The notes beneath the pieces were generated by a model. That model ran no database searches. It was not told the DNA's origin and was given only the letters and a program-made list of their open reading frames with translations. This document shows, piece after piece, positions 10,283 to 39,436 of a DNA stretch of 64,000 nt (position 1 is its first letter; the number at the start of each line of letters is the position of its first letter). Origin of the DNA: Candidatus Hydrogenedentota bacterium (GTDB lineage: Bacteria; Hydrogenedentota; Hydrogenedentia; Hydrogenedentales; SLHB01); assembly GCA_036769985.1 (NCBI GenBank), contig DAIPKA010000033.1, forward strand, positions 8,900 to 72,899, written 5' to 3'. The position numbers and the translations under genes are program-made.

Positions 10283-10305
10283 AAGGATTTATGGAGCGTA
10301 TTCAC

Positions 10306-10335
10306 TTGACGGAGAGTTCGCCCTGGTGATAGAAT
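10306..10335 (+). promoter_or_regulatory. Putative sigma-70 promoter for the fusion-pilB-pilT operon
   Basis: TTGACG (10306-10311), an 18-nt spacer, then extended -10 TGaTAGAAT (10327-10335). It lies about 125 nt upstream of ATG 10463. Sequence match only. Confidence 0.4.
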
Positions 10336-10462
10336 CGACACTGGTGTATGCTACACTGGCATCGTCGTTTCGTCGGCGCAGGATGACAGGCGCGAGGGTC
10401 CCCGGCTCCGGGGACACGGGCGAAGGCGGCGGCCATGACGTAGGCCAGGAACGAAGAGAAGC

Positions 10463-12337: not shown

Positions 12338-12356
12338 CCGCATAGGAGGAAGCGTT

Positions 12357-18258: not shown

Positions 18259-21200
18259 CTACAGGTAGCCGAGCGCCTCGAGTTGCTTGCGCGTGTCGCC
18301 CGCCGCGTCCTTGCCGAGCGCCGGCTCGGCGGCATTCTCGCGAATGTGCAGGCCCATGTCGTTGAGGAGACGATCCAACTCCTCCTCATCGTTCTTGCGC
18401 GGATTCTCTCCGCCGGCGATGTTGGTTTGCTCGCCGGGATCGGTCGCAAGATCATAGAACGCGACGGGGGCGAATCCACGCGGATTATCCTCGTTGGCGT
18501 GGACGATCTTGGCGCTCGTCGTGCGGACGGCCTGCAGATCGTTGCCCTCGAAATCCACCTCGGCGTAGACATATGCCGTATCGGCGTTGACGTCGTTACC
18601 GGAACGATCGACGAGGGGTTTACCGGGCATGGCGGCAGGCTTTTCGAGGCCGGCGTATTCAAGGAAGGTTGCCGGGATATCGATGTGCCGCGCAAAGTGC
18701 GCATTGGTCTCGCCGGCGCGGCCATTGGCCGGTAGCTTGACGATCAGTGGCACATGCATGAGCTCGTCGAATAGGGTCTGACCGTGCCACCACCCCTGGT
18801 GATCGTAGAACTCCTCGCCGTGGTCGGCCGTGAATACAATCAACGCGTCATCGTAGAGACCGCGATCGCGCAACCCCTGGAACAACTCGCCGAGATACTT
18901 GTCCATGTACTCGATGTCGTCGTTGTAAGCCTTCTTCATGGGCTCGGCCATCTTCGGGTCGGGATCGCCCATACGCGCGCGGGCGTAGCCGACGCCAGGT
19001 TTGTCGTGGTCCATGAAGGGATCGTGCGGATCCATGTAGTGCAGGAAGAGATAGAACGGCGTGCCTTCCGGTACCGCGCCGGCATCGAGCCATGCCAACG
19101 CGTCGTGGGTGACGACGTCCGCCGGCTGATAGAACTCGGTTACGTCGAGCTTGTTCGAGATCTTCGATGCAACCTTCTGTTTGCCGTGCCGAAGCACCTC
19201 GTAGAGCGAGAGTTTCGAGGCCGAGGGCGTTGCGCCGAAATAGTAGACGCTCGGCTTGAGGTCGGTGTAGTCGACGAATCCCTGGTCGAAGCTCCAAATG
19301 CTCATGATGTTCGGATTGTTCGACAGGCCCTTCGTGTAATAGCCGCCGTCGCGGAGCACCTCGGCTACGGTCTCTACCTCATCCGGCAGCGACGAGGTCT
19401 TCGTGGTGGCGGTATGCGATTCGGGATACAGTCCTGTGAAGAGGGTGGCGAAACTGGGCTTGGTCCACGTTGACTGGGCGAAGCAATCCGCGAAGAAGAG
19501 GCCGTCCTTCTTGAGCGCATCAAGGTTGGGCGTTTCGGCGGCGGCGGCGTCCGAATACATTCTCAAGTAGTCCGCCCGGAGCGCATCCGCCGCCACCAGG
19601 ATGATGTTCGGGCCGTGGACGCCGGCGGTTGGCTCGAACGGCGCCGCGGCTACCGGCGCCGGTTTCATGGCCGCACTGAGTCCGACACCGACGACGACGA
19701 GCACTCCGTACGCCACGGCGCCGGCCACGAGGCCTTTCATACGCCCGCCGCCCACGATCCAGAGGATGACGCCGACAACCAGGGCTGCCGCCAGTCCGAT
19801 GCCGAGGGCCGCGACCAGGATCTGGCCATTCTGGCTCATGGTAGGCGCGTGGCCCTCGAGCACGTCTCGTTGGAACCGGAACCGGCCTATCACGAGTACG
19901 CCTGCCGCCAACACACCGCCCAGGCTAAGCGCAAAGGTGGTGCGGCCGCTGGCGAACCGGTCCACGAGCAGGTAGAAGAATGCCAGCGCGCCGGCCACGC
20001 CGAGTCCGACCAAGGCGAACATGACCCCATAGGCCAGCGGCCCCCACCAGAACAGGCCGAGCTCCTGAAGGCCCTGTACGGTGCGGACCACCCAGCCGGC
20101 CTCGGCCAGGGCGATCACGGCGCCGCCGAGCGCGCCACCGAACAGGCCGGCCAGCACACAGCCGATCAGGCTACACCGGTACCTCTGCACGGCTTCCGGC
20201 GCCAGATGCAGGTATTCCTCAGTCTTGGCGGCGGCCGCTTCGCGGCGCGCCTGAGCCAGTTCCGCTTGGAGTTCCATCTTGCCGGGCCTCTTGCGCGCGA
20301 CATAGATGGGCAATCCGATGAGGAATGGAATGACGTCGCCTATCCACCACCCGAGGTGCGCGAAGGTGGCCGCCGCCGCCGCGCCGCTCTTAGCGCTCAA
20401 CAAGGTGACAAACACGATCTCGCGAATGCCTTCGCCCCCGATGGACGGCCCGAGCACCGTTCCGTAGATCATGAGCGGACTGGCGAACAGGATGTCGAGG
20501 AGATCGGTGTTGGTGGCGCGGATGGCCATCATGGTGCCAAAGTACATGATGCACGTGCCCACATGCACCAGAAAACCGAAGAACACCGCCAGGAGCAGAT
20601 CCCACCGGTTTCCGCTGTACGCCGTCGCGGCCGCGCCCAGCTTGAGAAGCTTATTCCGCACGAAGCCCGGTGTCGGCACCACAGACACGAGCACCTGAAT
20701 CACCCGAGGGTTCAGCAGCAGCATTAGGAACACCGCCACCATGCCGCCGAGAACCGCCAGAATGACGGCCAAGACCGGCACGTTGATGTTCAGCAAACGG
20801 AATCCGAGCGGAAACGTCAGGAAGACGAGGCCCGTCAGCGCGATGAAGCCAATGAGCTTCTCGACAGCGATCACGGTGACGCACTTGATGACCTCGCCGG
20901 TGTACCGCGAGGAATCGTAGAGTCGGTAGCCGTCCAGACCGATGGTTCCCGGCAGGAAGATGCCAATCGTGCGGCCCACGAACCAGCTCTGGACCAAGTA
21001 CCAGAACGGAATACTCAGGCCTTGCCCGTGGAGTAGAAGTCGCCACCGGAGCACTCCGCACAGCATGCCGACTAGCTTCACGACCAGCGCAAAGGTCAGC
21101 CAGAACGCGACCGCATGCGCCTGCGACTCACGAATCTCGCGCATCATGTCGGCCGGGCTGATGTCGCCAAACCGGTCGGAGGGAAGCCCGAACGTCTCCG

Positions 21201-21342
21201 GTCGGAACAACAGCAGGAAAAGACCCGCCGTCACCGCAAGTTTGATCACCCACCCAACCGACTTCTTCACAGACACAGTTTTTCCTCCGGTGCGCCGCCG
21301 CTCTATCGAATAGTCAGCATTTCCCGTTCGGGAGAGTACCAT
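18259..21342 (-). CDS. Fusion: MprF/LPG-synthase-TM (flippase-like) polytopic domain plus extracytoplasmic alkaline-phosphatase-superfamily (sulfatase/phosphodiesterase-like) domain
   Basis: The ORF is open to a TTG at 21384; the first ATG is at 21342. The N-terminal approximately 560 aa are polytopic ([21 protein letters not shown].., many helices). The C-terminal approximately 430 aa carry [48 protein letters not shown] and [9 protein letters not shown]. A Thr occupies the nucleophile position and there is no C/S-x-P-x-R. Confidence 0.7.
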   Translation of the reverse strand: [1027 protein letters not shown]

Positions 21343-21512
21343 AGACTTCTCTGGCCTCACAACCTGGCGAGTGCTCGGTCCCAAAGCGCGCGGACCTCGC
21401 CGTCTCCTCGTCTCGTCCTTTCCGGCAGGCCTTGCATTTGCCTATCGCCGAGGTCACACTGGCGTTCGGAACGCGGTCACGACCATTCAGAACGTCCTGA
21501 CGAGGAGGCACC

Positions 21513-23393: not shown

Positions 23394-24455
23394 ATGTACA
23401 CGCAGGTTCAGGCCCGTGCCGTTGCCCGCCACGGCAAGGCCGTGGAGCTTCGGAGCGACACGTTCACGGTGCCGACCCCGGCCATGCGCGAGGCCATGGC
23501 CAATGCGGCCGTCGGCGATGATGTTTATGGCGAAGACCCAACGGTTAGGGCGCTCCAATCGCGCGCGGCCGAACTCATGGGCAAAGAGGCCGCGCTATTC
23601 TTGCCGTCGGGAACCATGGCCAACCTCGTGGCCATCCTGGCGCAGACGCGTCCCGGCGACAGTATCATTCTGAGTCGCGAAGCGCATCCCATCAACTACG
23701 AATCGGGCAATGTGGCCATGGTGGCGGGCGTGTTGCCGAGGCCGGTGATCGCCGAGTATGGGATTCTGAGCGCGGATGACATTGCGCCGTGGATCGTCCC
23801 GCGCGACGCCGACCATCATCTCGCGCCGACGACGTTGGTCTCGATCGAGAACACGTCCAACCGGGGCGGCGGCGCCGTCTATCCCATTGAGACGGCGGCG
23901 GCCATCGGCGATCTCGCCCACCGGCACGGCCTGAGGGTGCACTGCGATGGCGCGCGGATCTTCCACGCGGCCGTGGCGTCGGGCGTGCCGGCGATCGAGT
24001 ACGCCTCGCATACGGACACGATCAGCTTCTGTCTTTCCAAGGGCCTTGGCGCGCCGGTGGGTTCGGTGTTGGCGGGTGATGCGGCGACCCTCGACGTAGC
24101 GCACCGGTTCCGGAAGATGCTGGGGGGCGGCATGCGACAGGCCGGCATCCTTGCTGCGGCGGGTCTGTTTGCCCTCGATCATCACATCGGGCGACTCCGC
24201 GACGACCACCGGCGAGCCCGGCGCTTCCGGGAACTGGTCGAAGGAACGGCCGGCGTCTCGTTTCCCATGCCATCGCCGACGAACATGGTGTATTTCGAGG
24301 TGGCCGATGGGCCGGGCACGGCGGCGCGACTCCGGGAATTGGGGGTGTACGTGGGCGTGACGGCCGGGCGGCTACGGGCCGTGTTTCACCTCGATGTTTC
24401 GGACGAGGATGTGGAAATCGCCGCGGACGCGGTCAGGCAGGTGCTGCAGCCTTAG
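23394..24455 (+). CDS. ltaE: Low-specificity L-threonine aldolase
   Basis: AAGGAG SD. LRSDTFTVPTPAMREAMANAAVGDDVYGEDPTV, SGTMANL, and the PLP-lysine context FCLSKGLGAPVGS. Confidence 0.85.
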   Translation: MYTQVQARAVARHGKAVELRSDTFTVPTPAMREAMANAAVGDDVYGEDPTVRALQSRAAELMGKEAALFLPSGTMANLVAILAQTRPGDSIILSREAHPINYESGNVAMVAGVLPRPVIAEYGILSADDIAPWIVPRDADHHLAPTTLVSIENTSNRGGGAVYPIETAAAIGDLAHRHGLRVHCDGARIFHAAVASGVPAIEYASHTDTISFCLSKGLGAPVGSVLAGDAATLDVAHRFRKMLGGGMRQAGILAAAGLFALDHHIGRLRDDHRRARRFRELVEGTAGVSFPMPSPTNMVYFEVADGPGTAARLRELGVYVGVTAGRLRAVFHLDVSDEDVEIAADAVRQVLQP

Positions 24456-26097
24456 TCGCCGCGGATTCCGCCGGTTCGGCCGCCGGTTCGTCCGGGCACT
24501 CCAACGTCAGTTCGCCGGTGATTTCGCCGTCTTCATGCGCGATCAGGAGCGACACCTCGCGCATTGCGGAGACGCGTTCAGACCAGGGCGCAAGAGCCTC
24601 GTCCAGCGTTGCAGACGTGTAGCCTCGGAGCATACCGCTCTTGGCCCATTCCATGGCCAGGGCACGGACGGCCTCGATGCACGGTCCCGGCTTGATGCGC
24701 ACGTATACGTTGCCGGGCACGTCCAGGCGGGTCTCCGATACACCGCCGGCCAGAACGGCCTCGAGGGCCGTCCGACTGGTGCTCACGAGCAGACCGGTAT
24801 CCCACGGAACGGCCGTAGGCTCGATCGATGGGCCTCCAATCATCGGCAGCCACGCTCGGCCCAGCTCCGCGTCGTAGCGCGGAAACGTATCCCAGGGATA
24901 CAACCCTTCCGGCGTTGTCGGGATTGACGCCAGCGTAGCCGCGATGGCCTCGCGCTCGCCGCCGAATACGCCGACGAACTCTGGAACTGGCACCATTTCA
25001 TTCACGTCAACCCCCCGCCAACACAGGGCGAAACCCGGGCCGAGGGGCGCCACGAGGCCGGCCAGAAAGCGGCGGGCCAAGTCCCCCGTCGTCGGCTCGA
25101 TGTCCTGCGGTGTCCACGCGCCGATGAGATCGTCCAATGACATCTCCGACTCGAAGGCCTCGGCCACCTCCGACCAGAGCGCCTGAACGGAGACACCGAG
25201 GTCGGCCGACAACTCGATGAGCCCCTCGGGCGGGACTTGCAGTGGTCGTGGTGCGCTTGCTGAGAGCACGCCGGAAAAGCGCTCTTGCCATTGGGGCTTC
25301 AGCGCGGCGCGGTAACGCAGGCAGGCTTCGGACGCATCGATGCGCACCGCAAAGCTGAACGAGGCCAACATGGTGCCGGCGCGTCCCCACGCCGACGAGA
25401 CCGGCGTGTCGGGCGGCGGCGTGTCGGGAAAGCGGATGGCGCCGTGCAGGTCTTCGCCGCCGAAGGCTTCAGCGGTTTTCGCAAGCTCCTCACGCGTCAT
25501 GGCCTCATCTTCGGGCAGCGTCAACGCGCGGATCAGGGCGTCGCGCGAAGGACTGGCCGCCAGCACGCGGCCGCGGACGGCATAGTAGACGCCGAGCTTC
25601 TCGACGCGGCGCACGTTGAGACCGCCGGCCTCGTCTTCTTCAATGCCCGGCACGAATCGTCGGAGCTTCTCGGCGAGGCAACCGATTCGCCTCATCTTGG
25701 TCACAAATAGGATGTCGCTGAACTGCTCGGTGTCGTTGCCGGAGATGTGGCACACGGTGCCGATCAGGTTGTTGATGACCCACTCCGGGGCGCCCAAGTC
25801 GCCGCTCAAACGCGCCAACGCTTCGCCACCCCAGGACTCCGGCAGCGCGTCCCACACGTGTGACGTCGCCAGCTTCGCACGCCTGTCGAGCAAGTTGCTT
25901 GCCGAGATCCGGAAGGCCTGCTCCCTGGGAATGATACGACTGACGGCGCACGAGTCGCGACTCGCCCAGACCCCGTAAATCAGGACGGCCAACACCATCA
26001 CGGCGCCATACGCACAACCGCGCCGTCCGCGGCCTCGAGGCACCGCCGACTGAATGGGTCGCCGCGATCGCGGATATGTCCTGAGTGCCTCGCTCAT
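24433..26097 (-). CDS. Hypothetical membrane-anchored protein (unknown function)
   Basis: 554 aa. Basic N-terminus, one TM helix (AYGAVMVLAVLIYGVWA), then a large presumably extracytoplasmic domain with no motif I recognise. Its ATG overlaps the upstream gene's TGA (ATGA at 26094-26097), so it is translationally coupled. Confidence 0.6.
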   Translation of the reverse strand: MSEALRTYPRSRRPIQSAVPRGRGRRGCAYGAVMVLAVLIYGVWASRDSCAVSRIIPREQAFRISASNLLDRRAKLATSHVWDALPESWGGEALARLSGDLGAPEWVINNLIGTVCHISGNDTEQFSDILFVTKMRRIGCLAEKLRRFVPGIEEDEAGGLNVRRVEKLGVYYAVRGRVLAASPSRDALIRALTLPEDEAMTREELAKTAEAFGGEDLHGAIRFPDTPPPDTPVSSAWGRAGTMLASFSFAVRIDASEACLRYRAALKPQWQERFSGVLSASAPRPLQVPPEGLIELSADLGVSVQALWSEVAEAFESEMSLDDLIGAWTPQDIEPTTGDLARRFLAGLVAPLGPGFALCWRGVDVNEMVPVPEFVGVFGGEREAIAATLASIPTTPEGLYPWDTFPRYDAELGRAWLPMIGGPSIEPTAVPWDTGLLVSTSRTALEAVLAGGVSETRLDVPGNVYVRIKPGPCIEAVRALAMEWAKSGMLRGYTSATLDEALAPWSERVSAMREVSLLIAHEDGEITGELTLECPDEPAAEPAESAATKAAAPA

Positions 26098-28622
26098 TCG
26101 TTCTCGCCTTCCGACGCACTATCGACATGGATCTCGAAAAACTCGCCTGGCACGCCATCCTCCCCGGCAAAGCCGATGCGCACAAGACGTCGGCTCGGCA
26201 GGAACACGACGCCGAAGTCTGTCTGCTCACTCCAAACGCGCGTCGAGTCGGCCATCAGGGGCTCCGTGTCGCGGAGGGCGCGCTCCAGTTCAGCCGCCGA
26301 GATGATGTGCTCTTCCTCGAGCAACTCGGCTACGCGTCGGTGTCGCGCGCAGGCGACGGGATCGGCCTGTGACGCATCGGTGGCCACGCCTAGGAGCACG
26401 TCGTTCTGCGGCAGGCGCACCTGGGGCATAGGGCCGCACTCGAGCACGCACGCCCGGTCCCGCTCCGTCTTCTTCGCGGGCGTGGCCAGCATCACATGGT
26501 AGCCGGCTAGTTCCGGGATATCCCGGATCTGGGCCAGGGCGCGATCCAGACCGTCCGTGTCTTGCAGGATGCTTCGGAGCACGATGCCAAGCGGTGGGCC
26601 GGCCACGGGACGCGGTTCCTTCTCGGATTCATCGGCCAACATGGCCGCCAGCGATGGGACGTCGATTCCGGAAACGGGAGTGGTTGATACCGGCGCCGCG
26701 CACAACACGAGGCCGGAATCGTTCATGCCGGCGAAGGTTCCCATACTCGTGGTGGAACTCACCGCGACGAACCGATGCCCTTCCTTTGGCGCGACATCCG
26801 TAACGAGCATCGCTCCGAGGCCGTTCGCGGCGCTATTGAACCCCACGAGTAGATCATCCGCGCCGGCCCGTTCTCCGAGCGCCGCGAACAGCGTGCCGGC
26901 CAGTGGCCCGGCTGCCGGCGCCGACGGCTGCGCGCTCTCGAGAAGCCATAGGGCGTCGAAGGGGAGGCCGAGGACCTCCGCCTGGCCGGCGAGGCCATCG
27001 ATCACGTGCTGAGATACGCCGTACAGGCGAGGCCGCGCCTTGATCGCCGAGGCCGGCAAGAGCAGCGGCGTCGGATCGAGGTATCGCCCTAGGAAACGGC
27101 CCAGTCCGGTTTCGGGGATCATCTTCGCCTCGGCGATGCTCGCCACCACCCGGTCCTTGTACGCGCGCTCCATCTCGTCGCGGAAAGCCAGGGCGCGCTG
27201 CGCGCCCATGGCGAAGTCCGTTCCGCGCAAGGTCACCCACCGTGCCCCATTGTGCGTTTCAACGGCGGGCGGCTCCTCGGCTTCAGCCTCCTCGTCTTCA
27301 CCATGCGGTGCCCGACTGGTGAGTAGGGCCAGCTGAACGTAGAGCCACTGCGCGATATGGGGTCCGAAGAAGTTCATCGAGGCTTCATAGGAGGCGGTAC
27401 CGTACAGGTCCACGGGGGCGAAGTATCCCAGGAAATCGTTCGCCAGGCCCACGGTGAACTGGGCCGCGTAACCCCATTCCGCCGCGCGTCGGCGGAGTTC
27501 AAGTCCGATCTGCACGCACGGCTCGCCAGGCAGGAAATGAACGGCGAGCGTTTCAGGGGGGGGCGTTTGTGCCGTTTCGCCGGGTGCCGCGCTCTGGACC
27601 TCGACCTCGAGCACCTGGAGTATCCCTTCCCTCGGGAGAAGGGCGTCCGCCAAGGATCGCGGAAGACTCGGCGCCGCTTGGGCTACCCGCAAAGCCGCAT
27701 CCCCGCAGACGACACTGCCCGCGACTTCCCACGTGCGCTCGCCCAATAGCCGGCCGAGCGATTCCGTTCGCTCCCATCCTTTCTTGGCTTCGGGATTGCC
27801 CGGTCCCTGGTTTCCCTCGGCCCCGTTCAGGAAGAGCGCGATGGTGTCGCCGCCGGCGAGGGTCTCGATCGTCGCACAACAGTAACCAGGGAAATCGGCG
27901 GAGATCGAGAATAGATCTGGACCGTCAATGGTCGTGGGATGCATGGCGAAGTTGGCCACGACCGCGATCGGCACGCCATCGGCATTCTCAACGCGAATGA
28001 CCCCCAACTGCGTATCCACGGGTCCACCGTCCTCTTGGCGGTTGACGGACAGGCCTTCCGCGACGCCCGCCGCAAAACCCACGGCGGCCCGCTGATGGCT
28101 GGCCCGCGCACTTTGCATAGCCTGGACGAAGGCCTGGGCCGTCGCGTCCAGTACCTCGGGCATGAATCGGCCCGAGACCGCCCGGAACGGCAATGCGCTG
28201 ATCATGCCGCCTTGGCCGCTGTGGGTGTGGGTGGCCGTCAAGATGATGAATCGAGGGCGATCTGTTTCGGTGGAAGAACCGTCGCGTAACGAGGTCGCGG
28301 CGAGTTGGTGGATGCGCTCGCGAAGCTCCGGGTTGATCAAGCACAGATCCGCGCTGAGGAGGAACACTTCCGTCTTGCCATCGTCGAGGTACAAACAACG
28401 CACCCAGAGCGGATCGTGCACATCCCTTGACTCGCGGCCCAGTCGCGCCCCATAGCCGTTGAGCGGCGTGCCCACGGGTGGGGTGATCGCGACCTTCGCG
28501 GCGCCGGCCTCGATCGCGCTCGCCGCGTGATCGGCGCCCAAGCCGCCCACAAACGCCAAGGCGAGGATCGTCGCGAACGCGCGCCGACGCGCCGAATATC
28601 GCCATCGGTTATTCATACTCAT
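26094..28622 (-). CDS. Secreted neutral/alkaline ceramidase-like domain fused to a C45/Ntn-hydrolase-like C-terminal domain
   Basis: Tat-like signal (SARRRAFATILALAFVGG..AASA). The N-terminal half matches ceramidase-family motifs (GAAKVAITPPVGTPLNGYG, DPLWVRCLYLDDG, TATHTHSGQGG). The C-terminal approximately 390 aa show a C45-like pattern (AGTLFAALGERAG..LLVGFN..GTFAGMNDSGLVL) with Gly-Thr where Cys-Thr is usual. The C-terminal call has low certainty. Confidence 0.65.
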   Translation of the reverse strand: MSMNNRWRYSARRRAFATILALAFVGGLGADHAASAIEAGAAKVAITPPVGTPLNGYGARLGRESRDVHDPLWVRCLYLDDGKTEVFLLSADLCLINPELRERIHQLAATSLRDGSSTETDRPRFIILTATHTHSGQGGMISALPFRAVSGRFMPEVLDATAQAFVQAMQSARASHQRAAVGFAAGVAEGLSVNRQEDGGPVDTQLGVIRVENADGVPIAVVANFAMHPTTIDGPDLFSISADFPGYCCATIETLAGGDTIALFLNGAEGNQGPGNPEAKKGWERTESLGRLLGERTWEVAGSVVCGDAALRVAQAAPSLPRSLADALLPREGILQVLEVEVQSAAPGETAQTPPPETLAVHFLPGEPCVQIGLELRRRAAEWGYAAQFTVGLANDFLGYFAPVDLYGTASYEASMNFFGPHIAQWLYVQLALLTSRAPHGEDEEAEAEEPPAVETHNGARWVTLRGTDFAMGAQRALAFRDEMERAYKDRVVASIAEAKMIPETGLGRFLGRYLDPTPLLLPASAIKARPRLYGVSQHVIDGLAGQAEVLGLPFDALWLLESAQPSAPAAGPLAGTLFAALGERAGADDLLVGFNSAANGLGAMLVTDVAPKEGHRFVAVSSTTSMGTFAGMNDSGLVLCAAPVSTTPVSGIDVPSLAAMLADESEKEPRPVAGPPLGIVLRSILQDTDGLDRALAQIRDIPELAGYHVMLATPAKKTERDRACVLECGPMPQVRLPQNDVLLGVATDASQADPVACARHRRVAELLEEEHIISAAELERALRDTEPLMADSTRVWSEQTDFGVVFLPSRRLVRIGFAGEDGVPGEFFEIHVDSASEGENE

Positions 28623-28671: not shown

Positions 28672-29451
28672 TCACTGATGACTGAATCTCGGTTCCCGTT
28701 TCTCGAGGAACGCGGTGATTCCCTCGAGGGCATCCGGGCTCTTCGACACCGCAAGGAAGGCGTCACCTTCAACGGCCACGCCTTGCGACGTATCGTAGGC
28801 GCGCGCACTCAACGCGCTCAACGTGGCCCGGACGGCACTCGCCGGGAGCTTTGCCAGATCGGCCGCCAACGCCTTGGCCGTATCCATCAACTGCTCGGCC
28901 GGGACCACTGTGCTCACGAAACCCATCTCGAGCGCTTCCGGCGCCGTAAACGTCCGGCCCGTCAACAGCAGGTCGGTGGCGCGGGCCTGCCCGATAAGGC
29001 GAGGCAGCCGAAACGTGCCGCCCCAGCCCGGAATGATGCCCAGCTTGATCTCAGGCTGTCCGAAGACGGCGGAATCCGCGGCGATACGAAGGTCGCAGGC
29101 GAGCGTCAGTTCGCAACCGCCGCCCAGGGCCATACCGTTGACCACCGCGACCACCGGCTTCGTGCACGCCTCGACGGCGTTCATGGTCTTCACGCCTTCC
29201 GAGAGCAGCCCGCCTTCGACGAAGGGGTCCGCCAACATAGACTGGATGGTGGGCACGTCTGCGCCGGCGCTGAAGAACCGACCACTGCCCGTGATCAGCA
29301 CGCACCGAACCGACGCGTCCTGTTCGAGCTCCTCGAGGGCCGCCCGGATATCCAGAACCAAACCCAACGATAAGGCGTTTGCCTTGGGACGATTCAACGT
29401 GATGACTCCGTACGCCTCACCCTTGTTCACCAACACATTATCATAGCTCAT
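28672..29451 (-). CDS. Enoyl-CoA hydratase/isomerase (crotonase family)
   Basis: A GGAGGA SD lies 7 nt before ATG 29451; the ORF is open to 29568. ITLNRPKALNAL-like GVITLNRPKANALS, FFSAGADV and VNGMALGGGCELTLACD. 259 aa. Confidence 0.85.
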   Translation of the reverse strand: MSYDNVLVNKGEAYGVITLNRPKANALSLGLVLDIRAALEELEQDASVRCVLITGSGRFFSAGADVPTIQSMLADPFVEGGLLSEGVKTMNAVEACTKPVVAVVNGMALGGGCELTLACDLRIAADSAVFGQPEIKLGIIPGWGGTFRLPRLIGQARATDLLLTGRTFTAPEALEMGFVSTVVPAEQLMDTAKALAADLAKLPASAVRATLSALSARAYDTSQGVAVEGDAFLAVSKSPDALEGITAFLEKREPRFSHQ

Positions 29452-29666
29452 GTCCATTCCTCCCTCAATTCCCGGATATCCGGACTCCTTTCCCTTGAGT
29501 GCTCCCCAGGATGCGTGCCGACACAAGCCCTGACGAACAGGCCCCATCGTCTTGTCTGCCTGCCGCAACCCTCGACTACATGGTACCGACCCCGTTCGGG
29601 CCAGTCAACTGACCGCGGGTAGCGGGCCGTCGGGGGCCGATCACACCGGCTGGAGGCTACGCCCGC

Positions 29667-31286: not shown

Positions 31287-34200
31287 ATGCGAGCACAAGT
31301 TATTCTGCCCTGGGTCGTTCTGTGCCTCTGTCTGCTTCCTCTGGCATCGTTCGGTGCGCCGGAGGCGGATCACGAGGATCTGAACAAGGTCTTGAAGACG
31401 CTCCATGCGCCCGCCGCCCAGGAGGCGCCGCGTCTACTCACCACCGACGAAGGATTCCTGCGCTATCTCGGCGCCCCACCCGGCGGGGAGTTCGATGTCC
31501 CCCGCGAACCGGGCAAGGCACTTGATCCCGTACAGCGTTCGAATCAGTTTCTGGTGGACCACGGTCGGGCGTTCGGCATCCTGAGTGCATGCGTCGACTT
31601 TCGACTTGATCGCGTCACCGCCGGTACCAGCCAATCGTATGTGCGACTGCAGCAGACCTATGACGGCGTCGACGTATTCGCCGGGCAGGTCGTGGTGCAG
31701 GTCGATGGCTCGGGGGGCATCAACAGCGTGCTGAGCGATATCCTCCGCGACACCGAGGCGTTCGACGACGGCGCGATCGATACCCTTCCCGAGGTCAGCG
31801 CGAAGGACGCGCGCACCTTGGCCGGAAAGGCCGTGGCCAACGAATCGCCCAGCCACGGGATCGGCGATCTCAAGGTCATCGCCGGCCCAACGCTCGTGAT
31901 CTACAGTCCGGCCGTCCTGGGCCTGGACGGCGACGCGGCCCTCGCGTGGTACGTCACGGTGGCCAGCCTCTACGACGCACAACTGTGCAAGGACGTTTTT
32001 GTGGACGCCCATAGCGGCGAAGTGCTCCTCCAATTCAACACCATTCCCGAGGCCCGGTATCGCGAGGTCTACGATGCCGCGAATATGTACGACACGGCAG
32101 GTGATCTGGCACGCAAGGAGGGTGATCCGCCGTCCGCCGTCGTCGATGTGAACGATGCCTACAACCACCTCGGTGACACGTACGATTTCTACTATGAGCA
32201 ACATGCGCGTGATAGCATCGACGGCCTAGGCATGACGCTGACCGCTATCGTGCGGGTATGCAGTATCTACTATGGATGCCCGATGCAGAACGCGTTCTGG
32301 GATCCGCAGGCCAAGCTGATGGCTTTTGGCGAGGGTTTCGCCTCCGCCGATGACGTGGTGGGCCACGAGTTGACCCACGGCGTGACGCGCAACGAGTCCA
32401 ATCTCATCTACATGGGCGAATCGGGCGCCATCAACGAGACCTTTTCAGACGTCTGGGGCGAGTTTGTCGATCTCACCAACGGCCGAGGCAACGACACGGA
32501 AGAAGTCCGGTGGCTCGTGGGCGAAGACCTTCCCGAGAGCATCGGCGTCATACGCAACATGGCGGATCCGCCGGAGTATGGCCTTCCGGATCGAATGGGG
32601 AGTCCGTACTGGAGACCTACAGACTGGATTTGGGACGACCAGGGCGGCGTGCATACCAACTGCGGCGTGGGCAGCAAGCTGTGTTATCTCTTGACCGATG
32701 GCGACGATTTCAACGGCTACCGCATTGATCCGCTGGCCGAGGAGTCGGATGCGAGCATTGCCCGCGTGGCCGATCTGTTTTACGAACTCCAGACGAAACT
32801 GCTCACGCCGGCCTCCGACTACAACGACATGTACATGCAATTGGCTCAGGCGACTATCAACCAGGGGTACACCTTCGATGAACGCCTGAACGTCCGCGCC
32901 GCGGGCCTGGCGGTGGAGATCGCCCCGTTGGGGTCGGGCCGCGAGTTGGACCGGTTCCGCGTCATGCCCGCCTACGACCGCGCGGCCAATCCCGTGGTCG
33001 TGCTCACCTGGGGGAATCCGAAGACGACGGACTTCATCGGCGTGACCGTAGTCCGGAATCTCTACCGGTTCCCGCTGGACCAGGGTGACGGAGTCGTTGT
33101 CTACTCGGGCAAAGCGGAGAAGGCGCTGGATCGAGACGTGGTCAAGAACACGGAGTATTACTACGCGATCTTCGCGGACTTCAAAAAGGACTTCCCGCAG
33201 GTGCTCTATGGCCGTGCGACGGCGGGCACCGAACCGCCGAACATGCTGAGCGAGGCCTTCGACATGAATCTGGCCGGCGAGGTGGGCTTGAAGATCGACC
33301 TGGACGAGTTCATCGATCTGCAGTTCCAGCAGTTGCTGTTTACGCCCGTCGGCCCGCCGGAATCTGCCCTGGGTGGTGACGAGGGATACGCCGACTATTT
33401 CAACTACGAGGCGACGAACACGCCCGGTGTTGTTGAGCTTCCCGTGCCTCGGCACGACAGTCAAGGAACGGCGTATGGGATTCCGTTGAACGACGACAGC
33501 TTCATCGCGTTTAGGTTGGACGACCCATTCCCGTTCTTCGGCAAGGAGTACTATACGTTGTATCTTGCGGCGAATGGGTACATCGCTCTCGAGCCTCCCA
33601 GCTACGACGAGAACTTCCCGTCGCTGGCGGCGCATTTCGCCTCGCCTCGGATCTCGTTCCTGTTCGGCGACCTCTCGCCCCAAAGCGGCGGGGAGGTTTG
33701 GGTGCGCGACTTGCCGGACCGCGTCGTGGTCACCTTCGACGGCATCCTCGAGTACAACGAGTCGATGTTCCTGCCCCCGGCCTCGTGGCGGAGCACGGTT
33801 CAAACGGAGTTGTTCTACAACGGCCAGATTCGGATCACCTATCTCCAGGTCTACAATGTGGGGAGCATCGTGTGCGGTATCTCCGATGGCCGCGGCGTTC
33901 CCATCGACCCGAGCGAGCTATTCCCGGATCTCGTCGAGGTGGATTACACGACGGACCTCTCCGACTTGCCGAACGACCGCACGCTCCTCAGCATCGATCC
34001 CGTCGCGCCGCAGTGGGTTTTGGCCGGCCAACCCGTGAGTTTTGCCGTGACAACGCACTCGCCGGCCGGCGTGCCACGCCTCCTCGCTCAGTGGGACGGC
34101 CCCTTGGCTGTTCCGCCGTTCGCGGATAAGGGGGATGGCACCGGCGTATTCTACTGGAGGACGGTGCTCGGCCAAGAAGGGATCTACACGTTGCGCGTGA

Positions 34201-35039
34201 CCGCGGCCCTGGGCGAGGAAGGCGCATATCAGGACGTCCGGATCCATGTCGGCGATCCGTCGCCCAAACCCGAGGCGCGGGACCTGCGCCTGCGATCGGC
34301 CAACCCCACCGAGGATCCCACGGAGGATCGGCCGGTCGACGGCCAGTCGCCCCTTATGGCCGAATATACCTACTACCACCCGCTGGCCGATAAGGATCCC
34401 GACCTCTATGGCGAGAGCATCCCGCTTCTTTACTGGGTGAGGAACGGCGGAGCGGTGGCGGCGCTCGATAACGCGTGGCAGGTGCCGCCGAAGTTCACGA
34501 GGGCGGGCGACAAGTGGTTCTTCGTTGTGACGCCGATGACCAAGCAGGGCGTCCGGGGCGAGCCGGCACGTTCGTGCACCGTCACGGTGGTATCCATGCC
34601 GACGATCACCAGCGCCACGCCGGCCACCGGACCCAGCACGGGCGCGACGACGGTTCTACTCACGGGCACCCGGCTGAGCAATCCGAAGAAAGTCACCTTC
34701 GGTTCAATCCCCGTGCAGAACATCCGATGCCTGGGTGATACGCAACTCGAGGTGGTTAGCCCCGCGCATGCGCCCGGCGTGGTGGATATTCTCGTCACCA
34801 CCGCCGAGGGCACCGGCTATCTGCTCGGCGGTTACGCGTTCGTCGATCTCGGGGCGACCATCGTCAAGGCCGACGTCAATCGCGACGGGCGGACGGACGC
34901 GCTCGACGTGCAACTGGTTGTTAACGTGGTGCTGGATCGCGTCGGCGCCAAGGCCGGCGTCGATGCCGACGCCAACCGTGACGGTGCCGTGAACGCGGGC
35001 GACATCCAGGCCGTTGTGAACGTGGTCCTGAGCAAGTGA
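31287..35039 (+). CDS. Secreted M4 (thermolysin-like) zinc metalloprotease with long C-terminal extension, IPT/TIG-like domain and dockerin-like repeats
   Basis: Signal peptide MRAQVILPWVVLCLCLLPLASFGA. Zinc site VVGHELTHGV plus GAINETFSD. An IPT-like segment (PTITSATPATGPSTGATTVLLTGTRL..VDILVTT). A terminal duplicated Ca-binding repeat: DVNRDGRTDALDVQLVVNVVL and DANRDGAVNAGDIQAVVNVVL. Confidence 0.85.
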   Translation: MRAQVILPWVVLCLCLLPLASFGAPEADHEDLNKVLKTLHAPAAQEAPRLLTTDEGFLRYLGAPPGGEFDVPREPGKALDPVQRSNQFLVDHGRAFGILSACVDFRLDRVTAGTSQSYVRLQQTYDGVDVFAGQVVVQVDGSGGINSVLSDILRDTEAFDDGAIDTLPEVSAKDARTLAGKAVANESPSHGIGDLKVIAGPTLVIYSPAVLGLDGDAALAWYVTVASLYDAQLCKDVFVDAHSGEVLLQFNTIPEARYREVYDAANMYDTAGDLARKEGDPPSAVVDVNDAYNHLGDTYDFYYEQHARDSIDGLGMTLTAIVRVCSIYYGCPMQNAFWDPQAKLMAFGEGFASADDVVGHELTHGVTRNESNLIYMGESGAINETFSDVWGEFVDLTNGRGNDTEEVRWLVGEDLPESIGVIRNMADPPEYGLPDRMGSPYWRPTDWIWDDQGGVHTNCGVGSKLCYLLTDGDDFNGYRIDPLAEESDASIARVADLFYELQTKLLTPASDYNDMYMQLAQATINQGYTFDERLNVRAAGLAVEIAPLGSGRELDRFRVMPAYDRAANPVVVLTWGNPKTTDFIGVTVVRNLYRFPLDQGDGVVVYSGKAEKALDRDVVKNTEYYYAIFADFKKDFPQVLYGRATAGTEPPNMLSEAFDMNLAGEVGLKIDLDEFIDLQFQQLLFTPVGPPESALGGDEGYADYFNYEATNTPGVVELPVPRHDSQGTAYGIPLNDDSFIAFRLDDPFPFFGKEYYTLYLAANGYIALEPPSYDENFPSLAAHFASPRISFLFGDLSPQSGGEVWVRDLPDRVVVTFDGILEYNESMFLPPASWRSTVQTELFYNGQIRITYLQVYNVGSIVCGISDGRGVPIDPSELFPDLVEVDYTTDLSDLPNDRTLLSIDPVAPQWVLAGQPVSFAVTTHSPAGVPRLLAQWDGPLAVPPFADKGDGTGVFYWRTVLGQEGIYTLRVTAALGEEGAYQDVRIHVGDPSPKPEARDLRLRSANPTEDPTEDRPVDGQSPLMAEYTYYHPLADKDPDLYGESIPLLYWVRNGGAVAALDNAWQVPPKFTRAGDKWFFVVTPMTKQGVRGEPARSCTVTVVSMPTITSATPATGPSTGATTVLLTGTRLSNPKKVTFGSIPVQNIRCLGDTQLEVVSPAHAPGVVDILVTTAEGTGYLLGGYAFVDLGATIVKADVNRDGRTDALDVQLVVNVVLDRVGAKAGVDADANRDGAVNAGDIQAVVNVVLSK

Positions 35040-37239: not shown

Positions 37240-37491
37240 CGCGCCCGGGCCTTGGAGACGGCTTCACGAGGTCGCCCGGATCCGGCGTGCTCACGCTCTG
37301 AGCCAAGCCATGGGCAAGATGCCCGTGCCACGTCACAGGAAGCCTACCTCGGCTACCGGAGGCGGTTGCCGGAATCCGGTAGCCTGAGGTCGGAAACGGG
37401 AGTCTGCCTTGTTGGGCGGAAAACGGGCGCGGACCGTGACCCAGTCTTCTGGGACGACGGTGTGCGCCTGTCTTCCTCGATCGTGCTGTGC

Positions 37492-38892
37492 TCATGCCTC
37501 TTGTGCGGCGACGATGTATTCGGGGGCGGTAGCGTCTTCAGGATAGGCCTCGATGCCCATCTCGCTCTTGTCGAGGCCGATGAACTCTTCTTCGGGCGTA
37601 ACGCGCATGCCGACCAGGGCTCTCGTCAGTCCCCAGAGGATGAAGGACGCCGCGACGGTGAACGCGGCGACGGCCAGCACGCCGATAGTCTGGACGATCA
37701 ACTGGTTGACGCCGTGGCCGTAGAAGAGGCCCGCGTCGACGCTGAACAGACCGACGGCCAACGTGCCCCAGATGCCGTTGACGAGGTGCACAGAGAGCGC
37801 ACCGACGGGATCATCAAGGCGCAGTTTGTCGAAAGTGAGTACGGCCTCGATGACGAGCACGCCGGCCACGAGACCGATCGCCACGGAACCGAAGATGCTG
37901 ACTGCGTTGCAGGGCGCCGTGATGGCCACCAATCCGGCAAGGCAGCCGTTGATGATCATGCTCAGGTCGGGCGTGCCGATACGAATCCACGCATAGGCGG
38001 TAGCGGCAGCGACCCCGGCCGCGGCGGCCATCGCGGTCGTCACGGAGATGTGGGCTATGGCCGCGCCGTCCGCCGCCATGGTGCTGCCCGGATTGAATCC
38101 GAACCAGCCGAGCCACAGGACGAGCCCGCCCAGGGTCGCCAAGGCGATGCTGTGGCCCGGAATGGCCCGAATGCTGCCGTCCTTTCCGTACTTGCCGAGC
38201 CGGGGGCCGAGAATGATGACGCCGACCAGGGCGGCCCAACCGCCAACGCTGTGGACGACCGTCGAGCCGGCGAAGTCGCCGAAGGCCGTGCCGCGAATAT
38301 CACTCAACCAACCGCCGCCCCAGATCCAGTGGCCCGTCACCGGATACATGACCGCCACCAGCAGTCCGGAGAACAGGATATATGCCTGAAACTTGATCCG
38401 TTCGGCGACGGCGCCCGAGACGATGGTGGCCGCGGTGCCCGCGAACACGAGCTGGAAGAAGAACTTCGCCTCGAGCGGGATACCCGTCCAGTTCAGGGCG
38501 CCGTACACGCCGGCATACGCGTCGCCCATGGCAGGGCTGTTGTCGGCCCCTGCCAGAAACAGGCCCTTCAGTCCGATGAGGCCCGAGCCGTCGCCGAACA
38601 TCAGGGCGAAACCCGACGCCCAGAAAGTCAGACAGGCGATGGCGAACACAATGAAATTCTTCGCGAGGATATTCACCGTGTTCTTCGATCTACAGAATCC
38701 GGATTCGACCAGGGCGAAACCGGCATTCATGAAGAACACCAGGAATCCGGCAATCATCACCCACATCGTGTCGACCATCACCTGGAGGTCGCCGCCGGAC
38801 GGCCCGTCTTCCTGGGCGGCCACGACGGGCGCCAGAATCGCCAACGCCATGATCGCCAAAAGGGCGATTCGAACTGCATTGTGCTTCAACAT
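37492..38892 (-). CDS. amtB: Ammonium transporter
   Basis: Amt family: signal-like MLKHNAVRIALLAIMALAILAPVVAA, 11 TM helices, DFAGSTVVHSVGGWAAL and LSVHLVNGIWGTL. A GAAGGA SD precedes ATG 38892; the ORF is open to 38922. Confidence 0.9.
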   Translation of the reverse strand: MLKHNAVRIALLAIMALAILAPVVAAQEDGPSGGDLQVMVDTMWVMIAGFLVFFMNAGFALVESGFCRSKNTVNILAKNFIVFAIACLTFWASGFALMFGDGSGLIGLKGLFLAGADNSPAMGDAYAGVYGALNWTGIPLEAKFFFQLVFAGTAATIVSGAVAERIKFQAYILFSGLLVAVMYPVTGHWIWGGGWLSDIRGTAFGDFAGSTVVHSVGGWAALVGVIILGPRLGKYGKDGSIRAIPGHSIALATLGGLVLWLGWFGFNPGSTMAADGAAIAHISVTTAMAAAAGVAAATAYAWIRIGTPDLSMIINGCLAGLVAITAPCNAVSIFGSVAIGLVAGVLVIEAVLTFDKLRLDDPVGALSVHLVNGIWGTLAVGLFSVDAGLFYGHGVNQLIVQTIGVLAVAAFTVAASFILWGLTRALVGMRVTPEEEFIGLDKSEMGIEAYPEDATAPEYIVAAQEA

Positions 38893-38947
38893 CGTGCTAT
38901 TCCTTCTTCTCGGGGGCGCCATGGGCGCCGATGCTTGTCCAGTCGCC

Positions 38948-39436
<489 letters not shown>

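Follow-up and report, generated by a model that had tools for sequence, protein, structure and literature searches.

The window analysed here, a 64-kb stretch of DNA from a Candidatus Hydrogenedentota bacterium, carries two overlapping genes on its minus strand. One (26094..28622) is an 842-aa open reading frame for a predicted exported protein, referred to here as the fusion, and the other (24433..26097) is a 554-aa open reading frame, referred to as the partner. The junction reads GAATGAGC, in which the ATG (26097-26095) shares two letters with the TGA (26096-26094), and a GGAAGG lies about 10 nt upstream. The ATGA overlap given in a preliminary description of this DNA (26094-26097) was confirmed, and the translational coupling proposed there is supported. 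The strings which that description quoted (SARRRAFATILALAF, GAAKVAITPPVGTPLNGYG, TATHTHSGQGG, GEDEEAEAEEPP, AGTLFAALGERAG, LLVGFN, GTFAGMNDSGLVL and LRSILQDTDGLDRALAQI) are all present in the fusion translation. The public accessions of the protein, HOZ47002.1 and HPG68512.1, start at the second ATG and are 840 aa long.

A frameshift, chimeric assembly or sequencing error was considered as the origin of the fusion, or of the glycine codon described below, and was rejected; we give it practically no chance of being correct. The identical protein was recovered on four contigs from independent sources (NCBI, JGI, ENA and Logan assemblies), the reading frame is uninterrupted with no stop between the two domains, the same glycine is found in relatives at 47-52% identity, and the same architecture, with PF04734 and PF03417, recurs in over 120 full-length homologs (40-52% identity). 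The single-frame fusion is real, and what had been regarded as unusual for this genome is the norm of a whole family.

Directly upstream on the same strand is a crotonase / enoyl-CoA hydratase gene (28672..29457, approximately 260 aa; Pfam ECH_1, E = 1e-65), for which no NCBIfam equivalog cutoff was reached, and beyond it lies a DUF1015 gene (2e-77), both as originally noted. Translation of the crotonase starts at M38 or M40 of a 298-aa mechanical ORF; the gaps of 215 and 49 nt hold with M40, and M38 reduces the former to 209 nt. A promoter-like site is weakly indicated at 29608-29580 on the minus strand, and the crotonase is probably co-transcribed with the fusion. Of 37 GTDB loci that could be assessed, 20 have a crotonase homolog directly ahead of the fusion in the same orientation, as do L004-L006 and L087. 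DUF1015 adjoins none of 51 related loci and was dropped from the unit.

The AF2 model of the fusion has a pLDDT of 86 and a pTM of 0.86. Residues 1-36 (28515..28622, minus strand as for all features below) read as a predicted signal peptide, with RRRAF, a hydrophobic core and the boundary ASA/IEAG. It had been taken for a Tat-type leader, but the twin arginine is not conserved (RR is present in 16 of 104 homolog leaders) and a Tat-signal HMM search of the leader gave no match. The homolog leaders are Sec-like, with a median of 23 aa, and terminate in AxA ahead of (L/F)EAGAAK. Residues 37-440 (27303..28514) form a neutral-ceramidase-type Zn-amidase domain (Pfam PF04734, Ceramidase_alk, E = 2.7e-19), and here the original fold assignment was right. 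PDB profile matches were obtained with the ceramidases 2zws (1.6e-26) and 4wgk (7.7e-25), as were Foldseek matches with the model (4e-25 and 4e-23, respectively). In a phmmer alignment H132 (28227-28229), H134 (28221-28223), R195 (28038-28040), H228 (27939-27941), E367 (27522-27524), Y400 (27423-27425) and Y412 (27387-27389) correspond to H97, H99, R160, H204, E411, Y448 and Y460 of the Pseudomonas enzyme 2zws. All seven of these catalytic or Zn-binding residues are intact, and each is unchanged in 119-120 of 120 homologs. The Zn-amidase site of the window protein is complete. An acidic, flexible linker follows (residues 441-456, 27255..27302; HGEDEEAEAEEPPAVE), read from the sequence; its length differs between homologs in the family alignment, and pLDDT is 65 for the block 441-450.

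The remainder of the fusion is a C45/Ntn-type domain, as first suggested (NCBIfam C45_proenzyme, E = 4.2e-21). Its PDB profile match is to 3gvz (1.6e-6), and the match of the fusion to the acid ceramidase/NAAA profile was weak (0.11). Foldseek, again with the AF2 model, matched it to 2x1c (3e-13), 6dxw (6e-9) and 5u84 (1e-8), which represent IAT, NAAA and acid ceramidase in their precursor forms. Residues 457-575 (26898..27254) correspond to the alpha (pro) region, with two strands followed by helices according to DSSP, and end in a low-confidence loop (567-573, pLDDT <50) at the place where the relatives are expected to cleave themselves. Residues 576-842 (26097..26897) correspond to the beta core, which the alignment and the DNA indicate to be catalytically degenerate. 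In relatives NF040521 was matched over the whole proenzyme profile (1-313).

Gly576 (GGC, 26897-26895) stands in the family alignment in place of the Cys nucleophile and is followed by Thr577 (ACG, 26894-26892). Over 120 sequences, the nucleophile column holds Cys in 112, Gly in six and Ser in two; the next column is Thr in 117, which gives a C-T motif with the Cys, and the Arg column is Arg in 111. From the G-R-N-x-D motif the window protein has lost both the Arg (F595, 26838-26840) and the Asp (A598, 26829-26831), and it has retained N634 and R760. Its NF040521 score, 75.6 bits, lies below the cutoff of 85 and is the lowest in the family, compared with 115-143 bits for the Cys forms and 96-102 for the other Gly-clade members. 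With Cys, Arg and Asp replaced, the Ntn site is dead and should be incapable of self-cleavage, and the fusion would remain one chain of about 86 kDa. Identity within the C-domain was 0.462 for Gly-clade pairs and 0.464 for matched Cys-clade pairs; purifying selection thus maintains the Ntn-fold domain of the window protein in a non-catalytic role.

The preliminary description located Gly576-Thr577 and the codon at 26892-26894 correctly, but placed the nucleophile column at Thr577, one residue off, and concluded that the domain was either inactive or used an N-terminal Thr. Inactivity is borne out. The other option would require self-cleavage between Gly576 and Thr577, at a proteasome-like Gly-Thr site, to give an active Thr-Ntn hydrolase, and we regard it as very unlikely, even though the dipeptide lies exactly at the x-Cys-Thr of the relatives, the preceding loop is flexible, and N634 and R760 are still in place. 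Thr577 is the residue following the Cys in nearly all homologs and is conserved whatever the nucleophile, and is thus inherited rather than a new or substitute nucleophile. It is also out of register by one residue, its Arg and Asp partners are gone, and the HMM score is the poorest of the family. Other sequences without the Cys have Leu or Val at this position (G-L in P0004, G-V in L082, P0296 and P0297), and the Leu in P0004, a close relative, argues against an N-terminal-Thr mechanism.

The partner starts with a basic tail, followed by a TM helix (residues 26-45, 25963-26022) and, from its sequence, an extracytoplasmic domain of about 500 aa. It is predicted to be anchored in the inner membrane, N-in, with the large domain in the periplasm. 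Searches of Pfam, NCBIfam and PDB sequences gave no match, in agreement with the earlier statement that it lacks a known motif, and DUF3352, which had been named there for testing, gave no match in any of 33 family members. An exhaustive search returned only 213 relatives, and no internal duplication was detected. The structure model, which is confident, matches only TP0453, over about 190 of the 500 or so residues (TM about 0.48), suggesting a TP0453-like, lipid-carrier-like fold for the periplasmic domain. TP0453 is described as a membrane-associated periplasmic protein and proposed lipid/glycolipid carrier which integrates into membranes by amphipathic helices (PMC5421087, citing Luthra 2011).

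The two-gene module is conserved across the phylum and is apparently restricted to Candidatus Hydrogenedentota. The partner follows the fusion in all 41 GTDB loci whose downstream sequence extends far enough, and the 4-nt overlap recurs in L001-L006, L038 and L087-L089 (8 nt in L004 and L006). Stand-alone N-domain homologs of other phyla are accompanied by neither the partner nor a C45 domain. With the N-domain and C-domain sites scored as present or lost, each of the four states is represented by uninterrupted ORFs of some 800 aa. The majority of the family is N+C+; the window clade and L042/L043/L049 are N+C−, P0299-P0302 are N−C+, and P0295-P0298, L033/L038/L082, P0308-P0310, P0312, P0313 and P0315-P0317 are N−C−. 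Loss has thus affected one active site in some lineages and both in others.

The overlapping partner was found with each state type tested (L038, L087, L088 and L089), and its conserved motifs AGGLxLR and YYAVRGR..SPSR persist next to an enzyme with both sites dead. Since the ORF and the partner persist where the N-site or both sites are destroyed, catalysis cannot be the function that all copies of the module share. The pair might then owe its conservation to a non-catalytic role, such as lipid binding or transport or a part in an envelope-structural complex, with the amidase sites accessory and dispensable, and the lack of any acceleration in the dead C-domain agrees with this. On such a reading the intact Zn site of the window protein may be active, yet not the main target of selection. 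We consider it possible but rather doubtful, as in the first search the Ntn site was kept in 112 and the Zn site in 119-120 of the 120 sequences, and perfect retention of both in most genomes indicates that the majority of lineages are strongly selected for catalysis. Dead copies might also coexist with active paralogs, since the pattern scan behind the per-genome copy numbers favoured active N-domains and gives minimum numbers.

We put about even weight on the proposal that fusion and partner form a periplasmic machine handling N-acyl lipids. The two would come together in the periplasm, at the surface of the inner membrane; it is the gene coupling that suggests a physical interaction. The anchored partner would extract or present an N-acylated membrane lipid, which might be ceramide-like, an N-acyl-amino-acid lipid such as an ornithine lipid, or another lipid amide, and the Zn site would hydrolyse the amide bond. 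The Ntn-fold domain could hold the lipid by its head group or acyl chain, or dock the partner; in most relatives it would serve as an additional amidase that depends on the Cys. The frequent presence of a crotonase gene just upstream suggests that the fatty acid set free may enter beta-oxidation. After IAT, the nearest solved folds are neutral ceramidase, NAAA and acid ceramidase, in line with a lipid-amide theme. Against the proposal, 17 of the 37 loci assessed lack the crotonase, which is moreover a cytoplasmic enzyme, and the function of TP0453 is itself only proposed.

The N-domain might instead be a true neutral ceramidase, with the module degrading sphingolipids that the organism makes or scavenges. 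The full catalytic constellation, the ceramidases as best structural matches, and the acid ceramidase and NAAA among the fold relatives of the second domain favour this, as does the inference of sphingolipid synthesis in bacteria of about 40 phyla (PMC11334938). The main text of that source does not mention Hydrogenedentota among the producers, however, and no sphingolipid-synthesis gene of the Spt/CerS type was found within the window. The N-domain reaches 46 bits against an equivalog cutoff of 1200, shares about 20% identity with the solved ceramidases and lacks their C-terminal Ig-like domain, and short PF04734-only proteins are widespread, among the matches listed, in phyla without known sphingolipids. 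A bona fide ceramidase is accordingly improbable.

The N-domain shares the catalytic-domain fold of neutral ceramidase (P. aeruginosa PaCD, 2ZWS/2ZXC; human ASAH2, 4WGK), which is secreted, as is predicted for the fusion, and whose seven aligned residues are all present and family-invariant. Identity is approximately 17-20%, however; the N-domain is compact at about 400 aa, and the Ntn domain takes the place of the Ig-like one. With the peptidase C45 / acyl-CoA:isopenicillin-N acyltransferase family (P. chrysogenum IAT, 2X1C-E; CV2077, 3GVZ; NF040521) the fusion has in common the proenzyme architecture of alpha region and alpha-beta-beta-alpha core (Foldseek 3e-13, TMt 0.70; 3gvz TMt 0.72). 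Relatives score above the curated cutoff and have the C-T and G-R-N-x-D motifs; the window protein, without Cys, Arg and Asp, stays below it, and its Ntn domain sits downstream of another amidase. As acyl-CoA is not expected in the periplasm, where the fusion is predicted to reside, hydrolase chemistry would be likelier than acyl-CoA transfer. TP0453 of Treponema pallidum (3K8G-J) is half the length of the partner and 8-10% identical to it, with no sequence-level relationship, and has a lipid anchor where the partner has an N-terminal TM helix. Acid ceramidase and NAAA (peptidase C89; 5U84, 6DXW, 6DY3) are lipid-amide hydrolases with the same Ntn fold and a helical alpha-subunit, but belong to a different family, similar only at the fold level (11-12% identity). 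Acid ceramidase requires a lipid-presenting accessory protein, saposin, to which the coupled partner may be functionally analogous, although the partner is membrane-anchored and unrelated in fold.

The fusion gene (26094..28622, reverse strand, 842 aa) and the gene for its partner (24433..26097, reverse strand, 554 aa) form a translationally coupled pair. An exported two-domain protein, whose Zn-amidase site is complete and whose Ntn site is dead as judged from its sequence, is obligately paired with a membrane-anchored, TP0453-like protein, with frequent linkage to a crotonase gene. Both ORFs and their ATGA overlap, as given in a preliminary description, were read directly from the window DNA. 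The junction is GAATGAGC, with the partner ATG overlapping the fusion TGA and a GGAAGG approximately 10 nt upstream, and the peptide strings quoted in that description are all present in the translation. The crotonase (Pfam ECH_1, E = 1e-65) and the DUF1015 protein (E = 2e-77) do lie upstream on the same strand, as had been reported. A PLP-dependent aldolase of the GntG/threonine-aldolase type (23394..24455, forward strand) converges on the partner gene, the 3' ends overlapping by 23 nt; it scores 374 bits against a GntG-family cutoff of 230 and falls slightly under the cutoff for low-specificity L-threonine aldolase. The computed G+C content of the window is about 63%. A promoter/terminator scan of the window gave weak consensus matches only, and no sphingolipid or other lipid-synthesis gene was found among the approximately 35 window ORFs scanned against Pfam, the window being a small fraction of the genome.

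Elsewhere in the window, an ORF at 18259..21384 (reverse strand) encodes 1041 aa with a lysyl-phosphatidylglycerol-synthase-type TM region (residues 45-342) and a sulfatase/phosphodiesterase domain (592-995), possibly a membrane-lipid or teichoic-type modifying enzyme. The ORF at 31287..35039 (forward strand) specifies a secreted metallopeptidase of 1250 aa, thermolysin-like (M4), in which FTP propeptide, TIG and type I dockerin domains are recognised; dockerins are unusual outside cellulosome-forming bacteria. The 1724-aa product of 47782..52956 (reverse strand) has only Big_12 Ig-like and fn3 domains recognised, near its N-terminus, the other 1400 or so aa being unannotated, and the 735-aa product of 42639..44846 (forward strand) begins with a region weakly resembling GDSL lipases (26.8 bits, under cutoff), after which comes a strong TPR array. 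Putative genes with no Pfam match lie at 10289..12481 (reverse strand, 730 aa) and 53820..55652 (reverse strand, 610 aa), both at E<=1e-5, and at 37252..39015 (forward strand, 587 aa) at E<=1e-3. The 730-aa ORF overlaps an opposite-strand ORF of 624 aa.

The fusion had been described as a ceramidase-type N-domain joined to a C45/Ntn C-domain. Pfam Ceramidase_alk matched residues 40-259 (E = 2.7e-19) and NCBIfam C45_proenzyme residues 522-812 (E = 4.2e-21). A family profile run against the PDB found the neutral ceramidases 2zws (1.6e-26) and 4wgk (7.7e-25), the C45-like CV2077 (3gvz, 1.6e-6) and, weakly, NAAA. The AlphaFold2 model, generated with 36 homologs as input, was confident (pLDDT 86, pTM 0.86). 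Foldseek matched it to 2zws (4.4e-25) and 4wgk (3.6e-23), the isopenicillin-N acyltransferase precursor 2x1c (3e-13, TMt 0.70), 3gvz (6e-8, TMt 0.72), the NAAA precursor (6e-9) and acid ceramidase (1e-8), with weaker matches to penicillin V acylase, bile-salt hydrolase and proteasome beta subunits. On the strength of the sequence searches and the structural matches, both assignments are therefore correct. The protein consists of a signal peptide (residues 1-36), a compact ceramidase-type catalytic domain (37-440), an acidic linker (441-456), a helical Ntn "alpha/pro" region (457-575) and the Ntn core (576-842).

Export of the fusion protein is well supported; the twin-arginine (Tat) route proposed earlier is not. 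The 36-aa leader, in which R-R-R-A-F-A precedes a hydrophobic core and ASA, could be that of a Tat substrate, for which the motif is S/T-R-R-x-F-L-K. However, only 16 of 104 homolog leaders have RR and none has the strict Tat motif; these leaders are Sec-like, with a median length of 23 aa and an AxA|(L/F)EAGAAK site. The Tat models TIGR01409 and PF10518, which are short and insensitive, matched neither the fusion nor the isolated leader at E<=10.

Alignment by phmmer to the Pseudomonas ceramidase (PaCD) places H132, H134, R195, H228, E367, Y400 and Y412 of the fusion on H97, H99, R160, H204, E411, Y448 and Y460, the Zn ligands and catalytic residues of that enzyme (2ZWS). Each of the seven is unchanged in 119-120 of 120 full-length homologs, and on this alignment the window protein has a complete Zn-amidase site. 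The Ig-like C-terminal domain Ceramidse_alk_C (PF17048) gave no match in the fusion, where the C45/Ntn domain follows residue 456 instead. Against the neutral-ceramidase equivalog NF041649 the fusion scores 45.8 bits and its relatives 31-66 bits, compared to a cutoff of 1200.

The Ntn site is different. The family consensus is P-x-C-T-M-F-A…G-D-R-A-G-A-D-D-L-L-V-G-R-N-L-D-W, and among 120 homologs the nucleophile column contains Cys in 112, Gly in six and Ser in two, the following column Thr in 117 and the Arg column Arg in 111. The window protein has G576 in the Cys column, followed by T577, with F595 in place of the Arg and A598 in place of the Asp; the Arg and Asp of the G-R-N-x-D motif are equivalent to Arg17 and Asp20 of penicillin V acylase. 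The preliminary description had put the nucleophile position at Gly576-Thr577. The codons are as described (GGC at 26897-26895 and ACG at 26894-26892), but the family alignment corrects the assignment by one residue, Gly576 occupying the nucleophile column and Thr577 being the inherited next residue. It had further offered an inactive domain or an N-terminal Thr as alternatives. The former is what the alignment and codons indicate, all of the Cys, Arg and Asp having been replaced. The latter, with Thr577 as a replacement nucleophile, is very improbable and was rejected: the residue is inherited, with Leu in its place in the close relative P0004 and Val in other Cys-less sequences. An artefact is more improbable still, to the point of being negligible. 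The identical fusion protein is found in NCBI (HOZ47002.1, HPG68512.1), JGI, ENA and Logan records, which excludes assembly or read error, and a sequencing error as the source of G576 was rejected both because those records are independent and because Gly recurs in six of the 120 homologs.

With NF040521 (cutoff 85 bits), Cys-bearing relatives score 115-143 bits, the other members of the Gly clade 96-102 and the window protein 75.6; its score with Pfam AAT (PF03417) is 14.7 against a cutoff of 23.2. Ten relatives exceed the NF040521 cutoff, at 96-143 bits, so the family belongs to C45 and the window member is degenerate. When pairs are matched for divergence of the N-domain, the C-domains of the Gly clade are 0.462 identical and those of the Cys clade 0.464, the pairs not being independent, and the domain as a whole is not decaying. 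We conclude that the window Ntn domain is a predicted uncleaved, non-catalytic yet maintained module.

In a scan of GTDB species representatives, with search patterns that favour active N-domains, at least 47 loci among the matches listed encode the fusion, each from a different assembly. Their labels are Hydrogenedentota, Hydrogenedentes or Hydrogenedentales, generic "uncultured" and, in a few cases, names beginning Nitrospir-, which we take to be mis-assigned or placeholder names. Outside Hydrogenedentota only the stand-alone N-domain occurs among the matches listed. Local tblastn of the stand-alone loci found no partner, C45 domain or crotonase; the only neighbours that recur there, a tandem paralog at 5 loci and a DegT-like gene at 4, provide no functional lead. 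In five genomes from other phyla (L063, L074, L075, L076 and L084) the stand-alone ceramidase-like gene adjoins a second, divergent ceramidase-like paralog.

Neighbours of the fusion gene were counted by local tblastn, at least 600 nt downstream being required for the partner and at least 900 nt upstream for the crotonase. The partner is directly downstream in 41 of 41 assessable loci and the crotonase directly upstream in 20 of 37. The start/stop overlap recurs in the related loci L001-L006, L038 and L087-L089, where it is 4 nt except in L004 and L006, which have 8 nt. What is conserved as a unit is therefore the fusion plus partner, often with the crotonase in front. DUF1015 was found by the same method at 0 of 51 related loci, and was rejected as a member.

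The N-terminus of the partner, MS(E/D)xxRxY…RRR–TM–W(T/S)RD, is conserved across 33 homologs. NCBI records differ in its start (HPG68511.1, 522 aa; HOZ47001.1, 554 aa); the ATGA-coupled start, giving 554 aa, is favoured by the conserved MS(E/D)xxRxY and by the 4-nt overlap that recurs at other loci. Read from its sequence, the partner would have a single TM helix at residues 26-45 between a basic cytoplasmic tail and an external domain of about 500 aa; it has no lipobox, the TM helix being found at the N-terminus instead. It had been said to carry no motif that could be placed, and indeed no Pfam family matched the 33 homologs and NCBIfam and PDB searches (sequence and profile) gave no family. 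DUF3352 (PF11832), put forward as a candidate, had no HMM match at E<=1 in 33 family members. An exhaustive profile search of 1.84e9 representatives returned 213 proteins, essentially all of them full-length partner-family members or fragments, and no distant relatives. No internal duplication was detected by hhalign (probability 0.8%). The fold of the partner is structurally similar to that of TP0453, which is described in PMC5421087 as having an alpha/beta/alpha architecture and amphipathic helices by which it enters membranes, and as a proposed lipid/glycolipid carrier.

When the catalytic columns were tabulated for the loci and for the proteins of a third homology search, all four combinations of live and dead sites were present. 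Both sites are intact in the majority of members. The Zn site is intact and the Ntn site lost in the window protein and the L001 clade, and in L042/L043/L049 (and L047), where the Ntn site is heavily degenerate. The reverse holds for proteins P0299-P0302, with H134M, R195T/A and H228R and with C-T-R-N-D intact. Both sites are lost in loci L033/L038/L082 and in proteins P0295-P0298, P0308-P0310, P0312, P0313 and P0315-P0317, the double-dead motif blocks (THTMNG, NT/NA, FGAQ, PGAP, FFF) being unambiguous. The dead-site orthologs have intact ORFs of about 800 aa, with the partner gene next and a 4-nt overlap. In a neighbour-joining tree the three Cys-less clades from GTDB loci (window/L001; L033/L038/L082; L042/L043/L049) are all basal, and because they branch close to the base, one to three Cys losses are possible. 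Complementary paralogs may coexist within one genome, since the scan patterns are biased to active N-domains and the loci listed are a minimum. At dead-N-domain loci a PIG-L family deacetylase, joined in L088 and L089 by two GT4 glycosyltransferases, is found near the cassette (L087, 1202-2050; L088, 7097-10189; L089, 6224-9229); these neighbours may connect the cassette with a pathway for glycolipids or envelope glycans, or may be a coincidence. Whatever it does, the family offers a clean natural experiment on how pseudoenzymes evolve, in which one two-domain scaffold has both, either or neither site active and the partner stays constant.

The reading we prefer, at what we judge to be even chances, is that fusion and partner handle an N-acylated lipid in the periplasm. 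The two would act jointly on the periplasmic side of the inner membrane, with the partner extracting or presenting the lipid and the Zn site cleaving the amide. The Ntn-fold domain of the window protein would bind substrate or dock the partner; in most relatives it would be a second, Cys amidase that first cleaves itself. The released fatty acid may enter beta-oxidation. A narrower version, a true sphingolipid ceramidase, would draw on the same Zn site and is improbable in view of the 46 bits against a cutoff of 1200 and the missing C-terminal domain.

The main rival to the lipid-amide reading holds that the conserved function is non-catalytic. That both catalytic sites can be lost speaks for it, and the seven Zn-site positions, all but invariant in 120 full-length homologs, speak for catalysis; we consider this rival rather unlikely. 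Somewhat more doubtful is the specific proposal that fusion and partner form a periplasmic complex peculiar to Hydrogenedentota, with an essential non-enzymatic role, for example in lipid extraction/transport or envelope biogenesis. Its two recruited lipid-amidase folds would now be decaying independently into pseudoenzymes in different lineages, giving all four combinations, and the window protein would be an intermediate, still live at its Zn site and dead at its Ntn site.

How the module is built and how it has evolved are solidly established, and somewhat surprising. Each of the enzyme folds is well known; what is undescribed is that they are fused, that a fold-orphan membrane protein is obligately coupled to them and that the arrangement appears confined to one uncultured phylum. 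A literature search found no publication on the fusion architecture, or tying fusion, partner coupling and phylum restriction together. Public records name only one domain of the fusion (e.g. "C45 family autoproteolytic acyltransferase/hydrolase") and call the partner "hypothetical", and automated names such as "neutral ceramidase" claim more than is known. If the lipid-amide reading is true, it points to an unsought N-acyl lipid metabolism in Hydrogenedentota, and the module would be a bacterial counterpart of the eukaryotic arrangement in which an accessory protein presents lipid to a ceramidase.

Compared to neutral ceramidases, the N-domain has the same catalytic-domain fold and aligned Zn/catalytic residues; the Ig-like C-terminal domain is theirs and is absent here, and the fusion is below the curated cutoff. 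On these alignments the N-domain is predicted to work like a neutral ceramidase, yet lies outside the curated equivalog. The C-domain belongs to C45 by its fold (Ntn alpha-beta-beta-alpha with a pro-region) and by its relatives, whereas the window copy, without the nucleophile Cys and the Arg/Asp residues and below the score cutoff, is best termed a degenerate C45-like domain. The resemblance of the partner to TP0453 is confined to the fold. The nearest functional analogy to the fusion with its partner is acid ceramidase, which works with saposin.
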